Assembly: GCA_902628635.1 (NCBI GenBank)
Contig: CACONQ010000004.1
Span: forward strand, 48,082 to 112,081
Reading direction: 5' to 3'
DNA from: an uncultured Pelagibacteraceae bacterium
GTDB lineage: Bacteria > Pseudomonadota > Alphaproteobacteria > Pelagibacterales > Pelagibacteraceae
Length of the DNA: 64,000 nucleotides
In this document: positions 51,845 through 59,509 of the stretch, piece by piece
Position numbering within the stretch: the stretch's first letter is position 1
Layout: the number at the start of each line of letters is the position of its first letter
Program-made: the position numbers and the translations under genes
The notes under the pieces: generated by a model
The model's input: only the letters and a program-made list of their open reading frames with translations
Told to the model about the DNA's origin: nothing
The model's database searches: none

Positions 51845-52849
51845 ATGTCAGATAAATTTAAAGCCTTGGTTTTAAACCAAGAGGGTGAAAATTTTACTAG
51901 GGAAGTAAAGGAGTTAGATAAAAGTTTTTTAAAACATGGGGATGTTACTGTTAAAGTAGACTACTCAAGTTTAAATTATAAAGATGCACTAATTTTAAAA
52001 AATGGTGCAAGATTAGTCAAAGAATTTCCACATATTCCAGGTATTGATTTCTCAGGTACGGTTGTTGAAAGTCAAAATCAAAAATTTAAAGAAGGCGATG
52101 AAATAATTCTTACAGGATGGAGAGTAGGCGAGATTTATTTTGGAGGCTACTCTCAATACGCAAAAGTCAATGGAGAATTTCTAGTTAAAAAACCTAAATC
52201 TCTTACATTCAAACAAGCGATGATATTAGGAACTGCAGGGTTTACTGCTTTACAATGTGCTTTTACTACAAAACAAACTAGAGAAGTTTTATTACTTGGA
52301 GAGAAAGTTCAAGATGTTTTAGTTACTGGAGCATCAGGTGGGGTAGGAAGTATTGCAACAATGATTTTAAGTAAATTAGGATGTAATGTAACTGCTGTTA
52401 CAGGCAAGGATAGTAACAAAGAGTATTTAAAATCAATTGGTGCTAAAAATGTAATAAATACAAGTGAATTAGACAAAGAAGCAAGGCCATTAGATAAAGG
52501 TATTTATGATGGAGCAGTCGATACAGTTGGCGGGAATGTTTTATCAAATGTTTTATCCCATGTTAAAGATGCCGGAATTGTAGCAGCTTGTGGAAATGCA
52601 TCAGGAATAAAATTAAATACCACAGTAATGCCATTTATTATAAGAGGTGTAAAGCTTTGGGGTATAAACTCTGTTACAGCATCAATTAAAAGAAGAGAAT
52701 TTTTGTGGGGGGAAGTAGAAAAACTAGTTGATTTTGCTTTGCTTGAAAAATCTATAAAAGAGGTAAGTCTTGGCGAATTAATTGATGTTTACCCAAAAAT
52801 GTTACAAGGGAAAACATCAGGAAGATATATCGTCAATTTAAACAAATAA
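51845..52849 (+). CDS. acuI: Acryloyl-CoA reductase (AcuI/YhdH family)
   Basis: YSSLNYKDAL, PGIDFSG, GTAGFTA, VTGASGGVGS, VDTVGG, PFIIRGVKLWGINSV. Confidence 0.88.
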   Translation: MSDKFKALVLNQEGENFTREVKELDKSFLKHGDVTVKVDYSSLNYKDALILKNGARLVKEFPHIPGIDFSGTVVESQNQKFKEGDEIILTGWRVGEIYFGGYSQYAKVNGEFLVKKPKSLTFKQAMILGTAGFTALQCAFTTKQTREVLLLGEKVQDVLVTGASGGVGSIATMILSKLGCNVTAVTGKDSNKEYLKSIGAKNVINTSELDKEARPLDKGIYDGAVDTVGGNVLSNVLSHVKDAGIVAACGNASGIKLNTTVMPFIIRGVKLWGINSVTASIKRREFLWGEVEKLVDFALLEKSIKEVSLGELIDVYPKMLQGKTSGRYIVNLNK

Positions 52850-53739
52850 TGGATTGGGATAAATTAAAAATTTTTCACGCTGTTGCTGAAGCAGGGAGTT
52901 TTACAAGTGCCACAGTAAATCTAAATCTAAGTCAATCAGCAATTAGTAGACAAATTCAATCTCTTGAGGAAGATTTAAAAGTAAAATTATTTGAAAGACA
53001 TGCGAGAGGACTTACTTTAACCGAAAATGGTGAATATGTTTTCAAAACTGCTCATGAAGTGATTAGTAAATTAAAAGAAGTTGAAACATCTCTTTCAGAT
53101 CAAAAAAATCATCCAACAGGCAAAATTACAATCACAACAGTTAGAAGTTTTGGAACTCACTGGCTAACACCTAGAATCCAAGAATTTATGCAACTCCATT
53201 CAGAAATCGAGGTTGAGTTAATTTTTGATGATAAAGAATTAGATTTAAGCACTCGACAAGCAGATATTGGAATTTTTATGAGAAGACCTAAACAGCTTAA
53301 TTATATTCAAAAGAAGCTAATAGATATTAATTATCATATTTATGGATCTACTAAGTATTTGGAAAAACATGGTATGCCAAAAACTGTATCAGATTTAAAT
53401 AGGCACAGATTTATTTCATTTGGAAAGGGAACTCCTTCTCCTGTATATAATCCAGATTGGGCTCTTAAAATAGGCATGAAAGACAACAAAAAAAGAAAGT
53501 CTATAATGAAAGTAAATAGCGTTATGGGCTTATTATTAGCAGTGGAAAGTGGTGTTGGATTGGCTGCACTACCAGACTATTTAAGTTATCAATCAAAAAA
53601 CATTATTAAAGTTTTACCCAAAATAGAGGGGCCAATCACCGAGGCTCATTTTGTTTATCCACAATCAATGAAAAACGTAGCTAGGGTTCAAGCTTTTAGA
53701 AATTTTCTATATAGCAAGATTTCAGAGTGGGAATTCTAG
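52849..53739 (+). CDS. LysR-type regulator, LsrB/VtlR-like
   Basis: MDWDKLKIFHAVAEAGSFT...LSQSAISRQI...LFERHARGL, the pattern of the conserved alphaproteobacterial LsrB/VtlR group. Confidence 0.85.
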   Translation: MDWDKLKIFHAVAEAGSFTSATVNLNLSQSAISRQIQSLEEDLKVKLFERHARGLTLTENGEYVFKTAHEVISKLKEVETSLSDQKNHPTGKITITTVRSFGTHWLTPRIQEFMQLHSEIEVELIFDDKELDLSTRQADIGIFMRRPKQLNYIQKKLIDINYHIYGSTKYLEKHGMPKTVSDLNRHRFISFGKGTPSPVYNPDWALKIGMKDNKKRKSIMKVNSVMGLLLAVESGVGLAALPDYLSYQSKNIIKVLPKIEGPITEAHFVYPQSMKNVARVQAFRNFLYSKISEWEF

Positions 53740-53772
53740 TAAATAATAGATAGGGTGCGACACCCTTGCAAT

Positions 53773-53803
53773 TGATAATCATTATCATTGCGAATAGTTA
53801 TCA
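53773..53803 (+). promoter_or_regulatory. Tandem Fur boxes upstream of the Fe(III)-binding protein gene
   Basis: Perfect 7-1-7 palindrome TGATAAT-C-ATTATCA (53773-53787) followed by degenerate TGCGAAT-A-GTTATCA (53789-53803). Confidence 0.85.
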
Positions 53804-53843
53804 ATACTAACGTAATATATATATATACAAATAGGAGATATAA

Positions 53844-54872
53844 ATGAGAAAAATAATAGTTTCTTCATTGATTACAATTTTGTTTGCATCATCTTTTGCG
53901 ATTGCAAATGAGGTAAATGTATTTAATGCAAGACATTATAAAGCAGATGGAGAGCTTTATAGTAAGTTTACTAACAAGACCGGAATAAAAGTTAATCTTA
54001 TAAACGGTAAATCAGGTGCTTTGGAAAAAAGAATACTTGAAGAGGGTGCTGATGCAACTGCAGACCTTTACATTACAGCAGACGCTGGAAGATGTGGAGC
54101 TATGGATGCAAAAGGTGCGCTTCAAGGTGGTTTAACTTCAAAAGCTATTAGCGCTGCTGTTCCAAAAAGCTTTAGAACAAGCAAATGGGTTGGTATCGCA
54201 AAAAGAGCGAGAATAATTTATTATTCACCTGAAAGAGTTACTGGTGCTGAGTTATCTGGAATGACTTACGAAGGTTTAGCAGATCCTAAATGGAAAGGCA
54301 GACTTGTAATAAGAAAATCTAGTAACATCTACAACAAATCACTTGTAGCATCATTGATTAAAAACAATGGAAAAGCTGCAACAGCTGCATGGGCTGAAGG
54401 CGTTGTTGCTAATATGGCAAGAACACCAACAGGTAATGACAGAGCACAGATCATGGCAGTTGCTGCTGGTGAGGCTGATATTGCTGTAGCAAATACTTAC
54501 TACTTAGCACTTATGTTATCTGGTAAAAAAGGTGCGGAACAACAAGAAGCCGCTAAAAAAGTTAAAGCTTTTTTCCCTAATCAAAATGATAGAGGAACGC
54601 ACATGAATGTAAGTTGTGCAGCTTTAGTTAAAGGCGCGCCTAATAAAGATAATGCCGTTAAACTTGTAGAGTTTTTATTAACTCCAGAATCTCAAGAGCA
54701 TTTTACAAATAACACTTTTGAGTTTCCAATGATTGATGGCGTTTCACCAAGTCCATTAGTAGTTAACAACTTAGGATTAGATTTCAAACAAGATATGAAA
54801 ACTAAGCTGTCTTCTTATGGTAAAAACCAAGCTGCTGCAGTAGAAGTTATGACAGCCGCAGGTTGGAAATAA
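53844..54872 (+). CDS. sfuC: Fe(III) ABC transporter substrate-binding protein (FutA/FbpA type; sfuC in Pelagibacter usage)
   Basis: ARHY, RARII, NIYNKSL, GNDRAQI, ANTYY tyrosine iron ligands; Fur boxes upstream. Confidence 0.92.
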   Translation: MRKIIVSSLITILFASSFAIANEVNVFNARHYKADGELYSKFTNKTGIKVNLINGKSGALEKRILEEGADATADLYITADAGRCGAMDAKGALQGGLTSKAISAAVPKSFRTSKWVGIAKRARIIYYSPERVTGAELSGMTYEGLADPKWKGRLVIRKSSNIYNKSLVASLIKNNGKAATAAWAEGVVANMARTPTGNDRAQIMAVAAGEADIAVANTYYLALMLSGKKGAEQQEAAKKVKAFFPNQNDRGTHMNVSCAALVKGAPNKDNAVKLVEFLLTPESQEHFTNNTFEFPMIDGVSPSPLVVNNLGLDFKQDMKTKLSSYGKNQAAAVEVMTAAGWK

Positions 54873-54876
54873 TTGG

Positions 54877-55047
54877 ATGAATAAAAAGAATTTATTTGAA
54901 GTTGATTTAAATAAATCTTCTAAGGCATGCGATCCGTGTGCTTTAGAGTGTAAAAAAATCGATGAAAAAATAAATAACAGAAAATTGTCTGAACTCAAAA
55001 ATGATGAGGTTGCACATATCCTAAAAATTTTTGAAGATAAAGAGTAA
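54877..55047 (+). CDS. 56-aa CxxCxxxC micro-protein inside the iron-uptake operon, not in ORF track
   Basis: MNKKNLFEVDLNKSSKACDPCALECKKIDEKINNRKLSELKNDEVAHILKIFEDKE; starts 4 nt after the SBP stop. Confidence 0.65.
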   Translation: MNKKNLFEVDLNKSSKACDPCALECKKIDEKINNRKLSELKNDEVAHILKIFEDKE

Positions 55048-55057
55048 TTTTCTCATA

Positions 55058-55136
55058 TAAGTGTCCGTGGTTACTTGGTATTACCCCCTTTTAATCGCGG
55101 GCACTTAATATTATAAGGGGTAAGGGTAATATCTTG
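55058..55136 (+). promoter_or_regulatory. Predicted structured RNA (16-bp stem plus loop-RBS pseudoknot) before the Fe permease
   Basis: 55058-55073 pairs with 55092-55107 including G-U pairs; loop GGUAUUACCC (55077-55086) is complementary to GGGUAAUAUC (55124-55133), which abuts the TTG start. Confidence 0.6.
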
Positions 55137-56759
55137 ACAAAAAAATTAAATATCTGGTTTTTACTATCCCTTTTAATCTCAGTAATTGTTTGTATTCCTA
55201 TTCTAACTGTCTTCATAAGCTTTTTTGAAAACACTTCAAATTATTACGAAATATTAAAAGAAACCTTTTTAATAGAATATATTTTAAATTCTTTTACTCT
55301 TCTAGTATCGGTTTTAATATTTACATTAATATTAGGAACTGGAACTGCTTATTTAGTATCTTTTTTTAAATTTCCTTTAAGTAATTTCTTTAAATGGGCA
55401 TTGATATTATCTTTTGCAGTTCCACCATATATTTACGCATATTCTTTAACAGCTTTTTTTGACAATTATGGAACAGCATTTACGATTTTAACAAATTTAT
55501 TTGGTGAGGGAAATTATAATAAAAATATTCCAAAATTTGATGGAATGATTGGTGCAATTTTATCCATGACCTTCTCCCTTTTTGCCTACGTCTACATATT
55601 ATCGAGGGCATCATTTTTATATCAATCTCAAAACCTCATTGATTTAGGTAAAAATCTCGGTTTTTCAAAATTTCAATCGTTCTATAATATTATATTACCA
55701 GGAGCTAGACCCGCAATAATTGCTGGCCTATCTCTTGTGGCCATGGAGACATTAGCAGAATTTGGTGCAGTAGATTTTTTTTCTATAAACACTTTAACAA
55801 CGGGCATATATAATTCTTGGATTGCTTTTGATGATCTTGCATTTGCAAATAGAATAGCTTCATTTCTACTACTTTTTATATTTTCATTATTCATTATAGA
55901 AAATTTATCTAGAAAAAAAGCAAAATATCATTTTAATATTAAAGGAGGGTTTAAACAAAAAGAAAAATTAGAACTTAATGGTTATAAATCTTTTTGTGCA
56001 TTTATTTTCTGTTTTTTTGTTTTTTTTATGAGTTTTCTATTTCCATTGAGCCAAATGCTTTATTGGACAATAAAGTTTCCTGAAAATTTATTTGATTTAC
56101 AAGTTGTCACTCTTTTACTTAATACACTTTACTTAGCTTTATTATCCAGTCTAGTATTAATAATATTCTCATTGATATCAAATTATGGAAATAGAGTTTC
56201 AAATAATAAAGCACTTAACATAATGTCAACTTTATCAATTTCAGGTTATGCGATACCAGGCGTAATACTAGCGGTAGCTTTTATAACTTTTATTGCGTGG
56301 TTCGATAATCAGATAATTAAATCACTAGGCTTTTTGTCAATTAAAAAAATATTTATAGGTTCAGTATTAGGTTTAGTAATAGTTTATTTTATTAGATTTT
56401 ATTCTTTAGCATTTAATGGAATTAAATCTGGTTATGAAAAAATAAATATTGCTGTTGATGAAAGTGCCTATTTACTTGGCTACTCAAAAAGAAAAACTTT
56501 TATGAATATTCATGTTCCATATTTGAGAAATTCACTTTTGTTTATAATAATATTAATTTCATTAGAAATTATAAGAGAGCTACCTATTACTTTAATTTTA
56601 AGACCATTTAATTTTGAAACTTTTGCCACTACAGCATATATTTCAGCATCAGAGGATTTGCTCGAGGCCGCTGCGGTGCCATCACTATTTTTAATATTAA
56701 TTGCTTCAATCTTTATTATAATTGCTTCAAAATATATTTTAAGGGAAACGAATGAGTAA
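55134..56759 (+). CDS. sfuB: Fe(III) ABC transporter permease
   Basis: AVPPYIYAY, METLAEFG, GYAIPG, RELPITLILRPFNFET; two-repeat permease; TTG start. Confidence 0.92.
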   Translation: MTKKLNIWFLLSLLISVIVCIPILTVFISFFENTSNYYEILKETFLIEYILNSFTLLVSVLIFTLILGTGTAYLVSFFKFPLSNFFKWALILSFAVPPYIYAYSLTAFFDNYGTAFTILTNLFGEGNYNKNIPKFDGMIGAILSMTFSLFAYVYILSRASFLYQSQNLIDLGKNLGFSKFQSFYNIILPGARPAIIAGLSLVAMETLAEFGAVDFFSINTLTTGIYNSWIAFDDLAFANRIASFLLLFIFSLFIIENLSRKKAKYHFNIKGGFKQKEKLELNGYKSFCAFIFCFFVFFMSFLFPLSQMLYWTIKFPENLFDLQVVTLLLNTLYLALLSSLVLIIFSLISNYGNRVSNNKALNIMSTLSISGYAIPGVILAVAFITFIAWFDNQIIKSLGFLSIKKIFIGSVLGLVIVYFIRFYSLAFNGIKSGYEKINIAVDESAYLLGYSKRKTFMNIHVPYLRNSLLFIIILISLEIIRELPITLILRPFNFETFATTAYISASEDLLEAAAVPSLFLILIASIFIIIASKYILRETNE

Positions 56760-57813
56760 TAATTTCTTTGAAGTTTCAAATGTTGATTTTATTGCAGGCG
56801 GTGAAACAAAAGTCCGTAATGTATCTTTTAAAATTCAGAAAGAAGGAGACATTGTATGTCTTTTGGGACCATCAGGAATTGGTAAGACAACAATATTAAG
56901 AACTATAGCTGGATTACAGAAAATAAAAAATGGTGATATTAAATTAAAAAATAAAATTATTTCATCTAAAGATATTAACGTTGAACCAGAAAATAGAAAT
57001 ATATCTTTAGCTTTTCAGGAAAATAGTTTATTTCCACATTACACTGTAGAGAAAAATATTTTGTTAGGAGCTGAAAAGAATAAGGGTAAAAGAAATCAAC
57101 AATTGAGCTTAAAACAAATTGTAGATTTACTGGATATTACAGAAATATTAAACCACTATCCTCATCAAATAAGCGCTGGTGAGGCACAAAGAGCCTCGCT
57201 TGCAAGATCTCTTTTAACACAACCAGATCTTTTACTATTAGATGAACCGTTATCAAATGTTGACCAAAACTTTAAAGAAGAAATTCAAGTAAAACTGAAG
57301 CATATTTTAAAGTCTTTAAAGATCACTACAATAATAGTAACGCACGATTCATATGAAGCTTTCTATTTGGGATCAAAATGTGGAATAATTTTAAATCATG
57401 AACTTAAACAATTCGATGACCCCTACAAAGTTTATCATTTACCAAACTCAATAGAAGTCGTTAACTTTTTAAACAGAGGCGCATTAATACCTGCAAAAAT
57501 ATCCAGCCCAAAAAGCTTAGAAAGTGAAGAGTTAGGAACAATCACAGGAAATTTTACAAAACCATTACCAAATGGAACAAATGTAAAACTTTTGTTACAA
57601 CCAGATGATCTTCAGCATGACGATAAAAGTAACTTAAAGCTAGAAGTGGTTGATATAAAGTTTAGAGGAACAAGTTTTATATATACACTAAAAACACCAA
57701 ATAATATGTTACTACCTATTTTGGTCCATTCACATCATATTCATCAACATGAAATAGGTGATAAATTTGGTATTAAGAGACCAATTCATATTGAACATGT
57801 AGTCTGTTTCTAG
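56752..57813 (+). CDS. sfuA: Fe(III) ABC transporter ATP-binding subunit
   Basis: GPSGIGKTT, LFPHYTV, LLLDEPLSN, VTHD. Confidence 0.9.
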   Translation: MSNNFFEVSNVDFIAGGETKVRNVSFKIQKEGDIVCLLGPSGIGKTTILRTIAGLQKIKNGDIKLKNKIISSKDINVEPENRNISLAFQENSLFPHYTVEKNILLGAEKNKGKRNQQLSLKQIVDLLDITEILNHYPHQISAGEAQRASLARSLLTQPDLLLLDEPLSNVDQNFKEEIQVKLKHILKSLKITTIIVTHDSYEAFYLGSKCGIILNHELKQFDDPYKVYHLPNSIEVVNFLNRGALIPAKISSPKSLESEELGTITGNFTKPLPNGTNVKLLLQPDDLQHDDKSNLKLEVVDIKFRGTSFIYTLKTPNNMLLPILVHSHHIHQHEIGDKFGIKRPIHIEHVVCF

Positions 57814-57817
57814 AATT

Positions 57818-59509
57818 TTATTTGTCACTTACGTAAACAGAAACACCCCGAGCATTTATATCTACATCAAATTTTTTATGCAAAGGAGGAAAGGCTCTTT
57901 GAGAACAATCTAATCTATCACATGTTCTGCATGAAACTCCAATTGGAATCTCCGTTTTTTTATCCTCTAAACTTAAATTTTCAGTATAAACAAATTCTTT
58001 CGCGTATTTTGCTTCACAACCCAATCCAATAGAAAGGATACTTTTTGATTGACCAAATCTCCCAACACCTTTTTCTACTGTTCTCGCTATACAAACATAT
58101 TTTTCACCATTTGTCATTTTGCTTACAGCAGCTTGTATCACACCTGGTCTTGTAAAAGCTGAATAAACATTCCATCTTGGACATGCGCCACCGTATCGAG
58201 GAATTTCAATCCCAGATAATGAAAATCTTTTTGATATATTACCTGCTATATCAACTCTCAACATATGGAAAGGTATACCAGGTAATTTTGGATCTTGTAA
58301 ACATGTGACTCTATGTGCAACCTGCTCAAATGAAGTTGCAAAAGTATTTTGGAGCAATTCTAAATCGTACTTTAGTTTTTTACACTCAGAATGAAATAAT
58401 CTGTAAGGCATTAATATTGCAGCACCACAATAGTTTAATAATGCAATTTGTGTAAGACTTTTTGATTCATCAGAAGGAAATTTAAATTCAGATAAGTAAT
58501 CATTAATAATATCTGTTGCACCTTCCTGAGCTATCTGAGCTGCAGCATGTAATTTTTTTGTTTCTAAAGAGTTATAATCACTCAAAAGCAACTCTTTTTT
58601 TTCTTTATTAAAAATTTTTGAAAATGGTTTGCCGTCTTCAGGTATAACATCTTTGACTAATATTGAATATTCTGACTTAAGGAACTCACAAAGAGCGATG
58701 TACCTAGTACGATTATTTTTTTGAACCTTTTCGAAAATCTTGTTTGCAAAATCTTCGAGTTTTGGAAAATAATTTTTTTTTTCTTGTAAAAAATCAGATA
58801 TAACTTCTCCAGGAAATGAGGCTTTTCTACTATCAATTATTTTTCCGGATAAACTTTCAACTTTATTTATCATTTCATGATCTTTTTGTTTAAAATTATC
58901 TCCTAACTTAATTAAAGCTTTTGCTATTTTTGGATTTGTGTTAACTAGGTCTTTTACTTCCGGTCCCAAAATATCTAAATCATCGAATAATTGATCATCC
59001 AATAATTCTGATATATTATTTTCTAAATTTATTTCTGCTTTACTCGTTAAATCTGATACTTCAACTCTTAATTCTTTACTAATTTTTATAAGTAAATCCC
59101 CATCAATATTTCTTTTTCCACTTTCAATTAGATTTAAATAACTAGGTGATATATTAATTTGTTCAGCAAATTTATTAGCCTGAAGGCCTAATTGTCTTCT
59201 GAAGGCTTTTATCTTTGGACCAATTTTTAAATCTAATTTTTTTATATCTTTATCTTTTGAAAATTTACTAATAGCTATTTTTGAATTTTTTAAATCTATA
59301 TTAGTTTCACTTTGAAGATCAGCTAATTCAATTCTCAACTCCTGACAAATTCTCAAAAGAAGGTCAGCATCAATATTCCTTTTTCCTCCTTCAATTAAGT
59401 TGAGATAGCTGGGAGATATATTTAATTGCTCAGCAAGTTTATTTGCCTGAAGGCCCAGCTTTTGTCTAAAAGCTTTGATTTTTGGTCCTAATTTATTGTT
59501 TATTTCCAT
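57818..59509 (-). CDS. Short-chain fatty acyl-CoA regulator (RamB/PrpR/ScfR family) with duplicated XRE HTH
   Basis: Two ISPSYLNLIE HTH copies, SFEQVAHR, RVDIAGNISKRFS, GGACPRWNV, IGVSCRTCDRLDCSQRAFPP; divergent from aceA. Confidence 0.9.
   Translation of the reverse strand: MEINNKLGPKIKAFRQKLGLQANKLAEQLNISPSYLNLIEGGKRNIDADLLLRICQELRIELADLQSETNIDLKNSKIAISKFSKDKDIKKLDLKIGPKIKAFRRQLGLQANKFAEQINISPSYLNLIESGKRNIDGDLLIKISKELRVEVSDLTSKAEINLENNISELLDDQLFDDLDILGPEVKDLVNTNPKIAKALIKLGDNFKQKDHEMINKVESLSGKIIDSRKASFPGEVISDFLQEKKNYFPKLEDFANKIFEKVQKNNRTRYIALCEFLKSEYSILVKDVIPEDGKPFSKIFNKEKKELLLSDYNSLETKKLHAAAQIAQEGATDIINDYLSEFKFPSDESKSLTQIALLNYCGAAILMPYRLFHSECKKLKYDLELLQNTFATSFEQVAHRVTCLQDPKLPGIPFHMLRVDIAGNISKRFSLSGIEIPRYGGACPRWNVYSAFTRPGVIQAAVSKMTNGEKYVCIARTVEKGVGRFGQSKSILSIGLGCEAKYAKEFVYTENLSLEDKKTEIPIGVSCRTCDRLDCSQRAFPPLHKKFDVDINARGVSVYVSDK

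Follow-up and report, generated by a model that had tools for sequence, protein, structure and literature searches.

The potC motif (Rfam RF01751) precedes transporter or peroxiredoxin genes. The portions of its original report used here list it as a probable RNA and probable cis-regulator, mark it "switch ?" and "marine only", and align it in rows that have a two-tiered form with UUACCC in the loop throughout (Weinberg et al. 2010, PMC2864571). It has been an orphan motif since 2010, and our literature search found no later work on it. Here we analyse a hairpin at positions 55058–55107 of a 64,000 nt stretch of DNA from an uncultured Pelagibacteraceae bacterium (GenBank assembly GCA_902628635.1, contig CACONQ010000004.1, positions 48,082–112,081 of the forward strand; this whole stretch is called the window below). 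It stands on the plus strand in the SAR11 iron-uptake operon, which has the order sfuC gene for a periplasmic solute-binding protein (SBP), small open reading frame (ORF), hairpin, sfuB permease gene and sfuA ATPase gene. A preliminary description of the window had taken it for an undescribed, possibly iron-responsive translational switch that buries the ribosome-binding site (RBS) of the permease gene in a pseudoknot. Our comparisons suggest instead that it is a simplified, diverged variant of potC, one of what appear to be two structural variants of the motif newly recognised here in the Pelagibacteraceae, and we regard it as evenly balanced whether this lineage-wide intercistronic hairpin acts by uncoupling expression of the permease from that of the SBP.

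The stem can be read directly from the window, as the preliminary description had it: 16 bp with three G-U pairs, formed by UAAGUGUCCGUGGUUA (55058–55073) with UAAUCGCGGGCACUUA (55092–55107) and closed by a loop of 18 nt. The GC fraction of the hairpin is 0.46 against 0.313 for the whole window. Alone it folds at −23.5 kcal/mol (z −5.30), a value that none of 200 shuffles equalled, and its reverse complement folds at −13.1 kcal/mol (z −1.31). The features of the locus, in window coordinates, are as follows (SD, Shine-Dalgarno sequence; ABC, ATP-binding cassette).

52849–53739, plus strand: LysR-type regulator gene in the neighbourhood of the operon.
53772–53806, no strand assigned: Fur-box-like operator upstream of the SBP gene, with GATAATCATTATC at 53774–53786 and a second half-repeat GCGAATAGTTATCA.
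53844–54872, plus strand: SBP gene, sfuC-like, first gene of the operon (Pfam SBP_bac_8/6/11/1).
54877–55047, plus strand: small ORF of 56 amino acids, unnamed, with CxxCxxxC and KINNRKLSE (from its translation); its stop lies 10 nt 5' of the hairpin.
55058–55073, plus strand: 5' arm of the hairpin (pairing, fold, covariation).
55074–55091, plus strand: apical loop, 18 nt, anti-SD-like, with the potC signature UUACCC at 55081–55086.
55092–55107, plus strand: 3' arm of the hairpin (pairing, fold, covariation).
55115–55123, plus strand: upstream SD-like repeat AAGGGGUAA, partner in the second pairing register.
55122–55133, plus strand: SD (AAGGG) and candidate pseudoknot partner GGGUAAUAUC (55124–55133).
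55134–56759, plus strand: fused two-domain ABC permease gene, sfuB-like, with a TTG start (Pfam BPD_transp_1, two stretches).
56752–57813, plus strand: sfuA-like ABC ATPase gene; it shares 8 nt with the end of the permease gene (Pfam search).

Relatives were gathered by scanning genome contigs with a permease alignment, which confirmed 557; the best 80, all Pelagibacteraceae and 78–91% identical, were used, and with the window they make the 81 sequences compared here. The SBP–permease junction varies in length from 17 to 882 nt. A hairpin occupies the orthologous site in 73 of the 81 sequences, and in one more (L080) it is truncated by the contig end. The junctions sort into the following types.

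Type A, 13 sequences including the window: one stem of 12–16 bp, loop ..GGYAUUACCCCCUUU.., SD AAGGGUAAUAUU, UUG start.
Type C, 18 sequences: stem of 19–20 bp, loop UAUUUACCCU, SD AAAGGGUAAA, AUG or GUG start.
Type P, 22 sequences and L080 (contig end): two-tiered hairpin, then a 181-amino-acid Redoxin/AhpC-TSA gene, then the permease gene.
Type E, 8 sequences: two-tiered hairpin as in type P, then an AU-rich spacer of 75–200 nt.
Type G, 7 sequences: stem of 15–16 bp with a GGGG loop, without SD.
Type T, 5 sequences: stem with a variable loop, then UUUACUUUUUU and SD AAGGCGGA.
None, 7 sequences (five loci with a 17 nt gap, L068 and L028): without small ORF and without hairpin.

In all types the hairpin starts about 9–22 nt past the stop codon of the small ORF. 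The gene 5' of it is constant and the gene 3' of it varies (permease in 51 cases, peroxiredoxin in 22), which links the element to the cistrons upstream no less than to the permease RBS. Stems change completely between lineages while the loop motif stays, and the pairing is maintained: the counts of stem pairs with compensatory changes are 8 in type A alone, 9 out of 13 for A plus C, 7 out of 18 for E plus P and 6 out of 16 for G plus T. A strand test by minimum free energy (MFE) over the whole region was noisy (the plus strand was better in 49 of 58) and was replaced by a count within the helices of 57 unique sequences, which gave 57 G-U pairs against 1 A-C mismatch; the counting routine halts at the first irregularity, and in some rows it walked an outer AU-rich extension. 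The G-U asymmetry and the compensatory changes show that the hairpin is a plus-strand RNA structure maintained by compensatory change, in agreement with the earlier preference for RNA over a DNA palindrome.

The hairpin is single-copy in the window. A covariance model built on types A and C (R1) and run over the 64 kb with filters off found the hairpin itself at 77.1 bits and a next match of 20.5 bits (E 0.18); over 51 other loci it found nothing besides the orthologous site of L012, and as a family-wide detector it is thus too narrow. The loop motif has 26 matches in the window where 24.8 are expected, and this lack of enrichment together with the single R1 match led us to reject a dispersed repeat of the REP (repetitive extragenic palindromic) kind. 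No intrinsic terminator was called at the window hairpin, which has no U-tract and is followed by AUAUUAUAAGG. An internal promoter was also considered and rejected, no plus-strand promoter-like site being called at the hairpin.

The orthologous site identifies the family. In 10 of 10 type E and P loci tested it matches potC at 62.9–93.8 bits, where the gathering score is 44 bits. That threshold was reached by none of the five type A, four type C, two type G and three type T loci tested, and an Rfam scan of 2.5 kb around the window hairpin gave no match at E ≤ 10. In narrower searches potC was nonetheless the best of 4227 Rfam families, under threshold, both for the window hairpin (17.1 bits, E 0.38, 121 nt searched) and for a type C hairpin (29.2 bits, E 1.8e-4, 111 nt). 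The potC model aligns the window's outer arms GUGUCCGUGG / UCGCGGGCAC to its GUGCCCACG / CGUGGGCAC-like outer helix, and the compensatory changes given above support this helix; in both the helix begins GUGY and ends RCAC. The UUACCC of the window loop is the apical-loop signature of potC, found in the Rfam consensus as well as in the published alignment rows. Absent from the window are the inner helix UAGGA/UCCUA and the 5' internal loop CUCUCC; the model has gaps there, and the fold gives a single 18 nt loop on a single 16 bp stem, a form that occurs in none of the published rows used here (PMC2864571).

The window hairpin thus shares with potC its genomic site in relatives, its outer helix ends, its loop signature and its marine hosts, and it adjoins an ABC permease of the kind once called potC; the loci compared here show both described contexts, a permease or a peroxiredoxin gene 3' of the hairpin. 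It differs from potC as listed in 2010 by being intercistronic, behind a small ORF, rather than at a transcript head, and from potC proper (types E and P) by an SD complementary to the loop, which those types lack. Because the three forms hold the same site behind the same small ORF, types C and A may be seen as progressively simplified potC variants, and the element can no longer be called undescribed. In type P (e.g., L004 2415–2960 and 21 other loci) the potC hairpin is separated from the permease gene by an inserted peroxiredoxin-like gene. In MFE folds of type P loci (e.g., L004 2328–2417) an AU-rich outer pairing is also predicted, UAUAUUU..../....AAAUAUG, which would lengthen the potC stem and take in the start codon of the peroxiredoxin gene.

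The small ORF that precedes the hairpin begins 4 nt past the SBP stop and is not annotated. Its frame, 56–64 amino acids long, is open in 72 of the 81 sequences, with invariant residues that include C-x-P-C and a core motif KINNRKLSE, and its differences by codon position (25148/23008/36559) show a third-position excess. Public data hold 186 predicted homologous clusters, none of them named or assigned to a Pfam family, and the small protein matched no Pfam or NCBIfam family in our searches. Its AlphaFold model has two helices with a mean pLDDT (predicted local distance difference test) of 73.6, and the look-alikes found in the atlas, Fer4-type clusters at 0.85, fall short of what the search tool itself treats as more than a lead. 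Small ORF and hairpin are both visible in 72 sequences, neither is visible in 7, and one alone is never seen. Natural deletions of the pair occur in L061, L063, L066, L072 and L077 (17 nt gap) and in L068 (41 nt gap, with the peroxiredoxin gene gone too). In the permease tree (a quick IQ-TREE search, midpoint-rooted, with 33 of 70 forks open) the 17-nt-gap loci nest within type C and L068 within type P, so the small ORF and the hairpin would have been deleted jointly at least twice; L028, which has a 61-amino-acid C-terminal remnant of the peroxiredoxin-like gene directly 3' of its SBP gene, is a third case. HIMB isolates are found among the P and C types.

The pseudoknot of the preliminary description has a real basis in the window. 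The loop stretch GGUAUUACCC (55077–55086) complements GGGUAAUAUC over 10 bp with one G-U pair, ending against the TTG at 55134, and a second register sets UUACCCCCUU (55081–55090) against AAGGGGUAA with one bulged C; both were described correctly. The partner of the second register is present in the window and L018 only, where the SD-like stretch is doubled (55115–55133 in the window; AAGGGGUAAGGGUAA) and so offers two registers; in the remaining 11 loci of type A, AAGGGUAA occurs once. The first SD-like G-run lies 7 nt from the end of the hairpin, so the stem alone leaves the RBS uncovered and cover could come only from the loop–SD helix. By itself the RBS stretch forms no stable structure (−1.4 kcal/mol), and its duplex with the loop is calculated at −16.5 kcal/mol (z −2.7), which 0.7% of 300 loop shuffles matched. 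Duplexes range from −9.3 to −16.5 kcal/mol in type A and from −9.1 to −10.9 kcal/mol in type C, with a weakened one of −5.2 kcal/mol in L031/32, and shuffled loops match the RBS equally well in 0–4% of trials for 19 of the 20 unique A and C sequences. Loop–SD complementarity over at least 7 contiguous bp exists in 31 of the 73 hairpins, namely all 13 of type A and all 18 of type C, and a 6 bp core, UUACCC/GGGUAA, is present in all 20 unique sequences of these types. The position next to the core is the single compensatory one: type A has A-U there, where 7 of the 10 unique sequences of type C have U-A. Substitutions that keep a wobble pair occur within the core (CC to UU in L031/32, A to G in L015) and at the helix edge (A to G on the SD side in L030). 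Loop–SD pairing is possible, and it is plausibly used in lineages A and C. These two types fall in two different major clades of the permease tree, so the arrangement would be either old or have arisen twice.

Two further observations concern the same bases. In type A loci other than the window (e.g., L025 891–911) a local 8 bp hairpin, AGUAUUAU/GUAAUAUU, whose loop contains AAGG, directly precedes the UUG start; it competes with the loop–SD helix for the same SD-side bases, so that each fold excludes the other, and the window has a weak 7 bp version only. In type C and 17-nt-gap loci (e.g., L024, L061) the sfuC leader contains UAGGGUAAAGA, about 20 nt upstream of the SBP start, which is complementary over 9 bp to the type C loop 1.25 kb further downstream and is present also where the hairpin is missing.

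How might such a hairpin act? In the reading that we favour, it would serve in cis as a divider of the polycistronic mRNA, its stable stem forming a protected 3' end or a processing boundary, so that expression of the membrane and ATPase genes would be lowered or uncoupled relative to that of the SBP and the small protein. A second effect is conceivable in the window's lineage, where the anti-SD-like loop could pair with the permease SD (7–10 bp, an H-type pseudoknot), and this pairing and the weak UUG start would together damp permease translation; SD masking would then plausibly be a lineage-specific addition. Different lineages may have added different brakes, type T a terminator tail with a strong SD, types A and C an SD-complementary loop, and type A also a UUG start. 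A divider is favoured because a stable stem stands just past the small-ORF stop, because type T orthologues pass the intrinsic-terminator pattern (2 of 2 loci tested, L021 2929–2963 and L057 2928–2963), and because of the induction gradient of the cultured Pelagibacter ubique, in which, in the section of the study used here, iron limitation raised mRNA 16-fold for sfuC, 10.4-fold for sfuB and 5.0-fold for sfuA (PMC2864753).

Several points weigh against this reading. We infer the divider role from position and analogy, and a simple stabiliser leaves the invariant loop sequence unexplained. The window hairpin lacks a U-tract. The microarray gradient comes from strain HTCC1062, whose sfuC–sfuB junction lies outside this comparison, and such a gradient can equally come from ordinary polarity. 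The SD-masking part faces difficulties of its own. The preliminary description had made its case depend on conservation and covariation of the loop–RBS pairing in relatives, and these were found in part: the complement holds throughout types A and C with the one compensatory position, but within type A none of the 10 pairs shows a two-sided change, one pair at the helix edge is lost through a U to C change in L006, L020 and L031/32, and 42 of the 73 hairpins have no complement, 30 of these (types E and P) keeping the loop motif. Conversely, the AAGGG(U/C)AAA SD is kept without any hairpin in the five 17-nt-gap loci, and in types G and T the hairpin is kept and the loop motif lost. In type C the connection would need about 8 nt to span a stem of about 20 bp, which by our estimate looks strained. 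Across seven lineages the loop motif and the GGGUAA SD are uncorrelated (two have both, two the loop only, two neither and one the SD only), and coupled loss of the two, tried as a test of the pairing, gave no association. In the E and P loci no consistent loop partner was found, either at GGGUA positions or by sliding a duplex search over −1400 to +2600 nt; the candidates for another cis partner there were only G-rich coding stretches conserved as protein, and were rejected. Since loop and SD are each kept somewhere without the other, their pairing cannot explain the conservation of the loop across the family.

Control by iron probably lies elsewhere in the operon. Fur has a 19-mer consensus. 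The GATAATCATTATC block upstream of the SBP gene is kept in every locus whose upstream DNA was examined, and GATAAT hexamers are given as Fur-box units in the part of the P. ubique study used here (PMC2864753). This Fur-box-like site is the likely seat of iron control, which would then be transcriptional rather than exerted through the hairpin RNA. The suggestion that the RNA itself responds to iron is unsupported: nothing points to iron sensing by it, and the operator already gives a sufficient route. On the 5' side of the operator stand a TGCGAC..TTGC(G/A)AT block, shared by every locus for which upstream DNA was available, and, at 53752–53766, a short hairpin GGGTG/CACCC.

That the operon transports iron is suggested by the source names, the Fur-box-like site and the published sfuC/sfuB/sfuA operon of P. 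ubique. The permease homologues, all 541 amino acids long and from Pelagibacteraceae, bear the source name iron ABC transporter permease. Every match to NCBIfam equivalog models, those of the SBP included, scores under its cut-off, so the substrate rests on these other grounds. The TTG start of the permease agrees with the 541-amino-acid homologues, and UUG is the start in 13 of 13 type A sequences. A convergent gene downstream (57818–59509, minus strand) encodes a 563-amino-acid regulator with two helix-turn-helix domains, a Peptidase_M78 (IrrE-like) domain and a ScfRs C-terminal domain.

The main rival, as far as the invariant loop of potC proper is concerned, is that the stem displays UUACCC to a trans-acting factor, an RNA-binding protein or a small RNA, as the iron-responsive element (IRE) does to apo-aconitase, and that SD complementarity is a by-product; we consider this a doubtful possibility. 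It would account for a loop that shows no variation across types A, C, E and P or the published potC rows used here (PMC2864571) while stems change freely, and that is kept where no cis partner lies within −1400 to +2600 nt. The operon is iron-regulated, iron-sensing aconitase of Escherichia coli is described as binding an mRNA 3' untranslated region (UTR) in the part of the source used (PMC4150767), and control of sfuC after transcription by Csp RNA-binding proteins has been proposed for Pelagibacter (PMC2864753). Types G and T, however, keep small ORF and hairpin after losing the loop motif, so the small protein cannot depend on that motif and the hairpin must serve some purpose in its absence. 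The loop is, moreover, unlike that of the IRE. A more specific version, decidedly unlikely in our judgement, is that UUACCC is the site of an iron-status-dependent factor (apo-aconitase or Csp), that potC, the window's variant included, would be a bacterial counterpart of the IRE, and that the A and C loops double as an SD mask which the factor opens or locks. If this were so, an IRE-like potC would set the ratio of SBP to permease, and to peroxiredoxin, post-transcriptionally in the ocean's most abundant heterotroph.

A primarily translational switch, in which the loop–SD H-type pseudoknot shuts off permease translation in response to a metal, a metabolite, temperature or a protein, seems to us unlikely. 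Its best evidence is in the window and its nearest kin: the 10 bp complement that reaches the start codon, an RBS stretch free of stable structure, the complement in every type A and C sequence with its wobble-keeping core substitutions and A-versus-C compensatory position, and the local 8 bp hairpin of other type A loci, which competes for the SD-side bases and so provides two exclusive folds. Against it stand the lack of two-sided covariation within type A, the hairpins that keep the loop motif and have no pairing, the five loci that have the SD and no hairpin, and a Fur-box-like site that already explains iron control. The window variant is, further, one stem and one loop with no conserved pocket-like architecture, and it matched no riboswitch in Rfam.

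Very unlikely, in our view, is an ordinary gene-end hairpin that weakly terminates the transcript of sfuC and the small ORF or stops its decay, and whose loop is kept by descent and matches the SD by chance. The hairpin does sit right after a stop codon in all cases, its T-type orthologues resemble intrinsic terminators, and the loop–SD match is traceable to one or two evolutionary events; yet full turnover of stems between lineages with the loop retained is unlike descent alone, the window copy has no U-tract, and shuffled loops seldom match the RBS as well (above). A palindrome that works at the DNA level, as protein operator, recombination site or REP-like repeat, is extremely improbable, since its one attraction, that the inverted repeat stands in a junction which varies as genes are gained and lost (the peroxiredoxin insertion; the deletions in the 17-nt-gap loci, L068 and L028), is outweighed by the three G-U pairs of the window stem, the G-U excess in the counted helices, a minus strand that folds 10 kcal/mol worse, a single copy in 64 kb and an unenriched loop motif.

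The comparison is of interest in that potC is placed at a fixed point of an sfuC–sfuB–sfuA operon with a Fur-box-like promoter, behind a conserved unnamed small ORF, and post-transcriptional balance within such an operon bears on how expression data of this kind are read. The Rfam potC model misses about half of the family's forms, and the junctions offer a natural series for comparison: potC proper, type C, type A, loop-less type G, terminator-like type T and clean deletions.

Among other known systems, the translational riboswitches SAM-II, SAM-V and preQ1-II have a stem 1 far shorter than 16 bp. If the loop–SD helix forms, the window RNA would have their topology and the same expected block of initiation, but it lacks conserved triplex or pocket nucleotides and a link to a metabolic-pathway gene, and its second helix is not conserved across the family. 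SAM-V does occur in this lineage, according to the part of the source used (PMC2704228); neither Rfam scan of the hairpin region matched SAM-II or SAM-V at E ≤ 10, which bears out the statement of the preliminary description that their consensus is lacking.

The enterobacterial malE–malF and hisJ–hisQ REP elements are intercistronic stabiliser hairpins that follow SBP genes, and in B. subtilis an IRE-like hairpin likewise lies between the SBP and permease genes feuA and feuB. The window hairpin resembles the enterobacterial stabilisers in being a stable stem–loop without a U-tract, in the passage from a highly expressed SBP gene to membrane-component genes and in the expected excess of SBP; it differs from them in being single-copy, in its conserved loop sequence and in the small ORF interposed. 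With the IRE-like hairpin of the acnB 3' UTR, as described in the part of that report used here (PMC4150767), it shares a conserved apical loop, here on an iron-uptake mRNA, by analogy only; its loop sequence is unrelated to those of the IRE-like hairpins bound by apo-aconitase.

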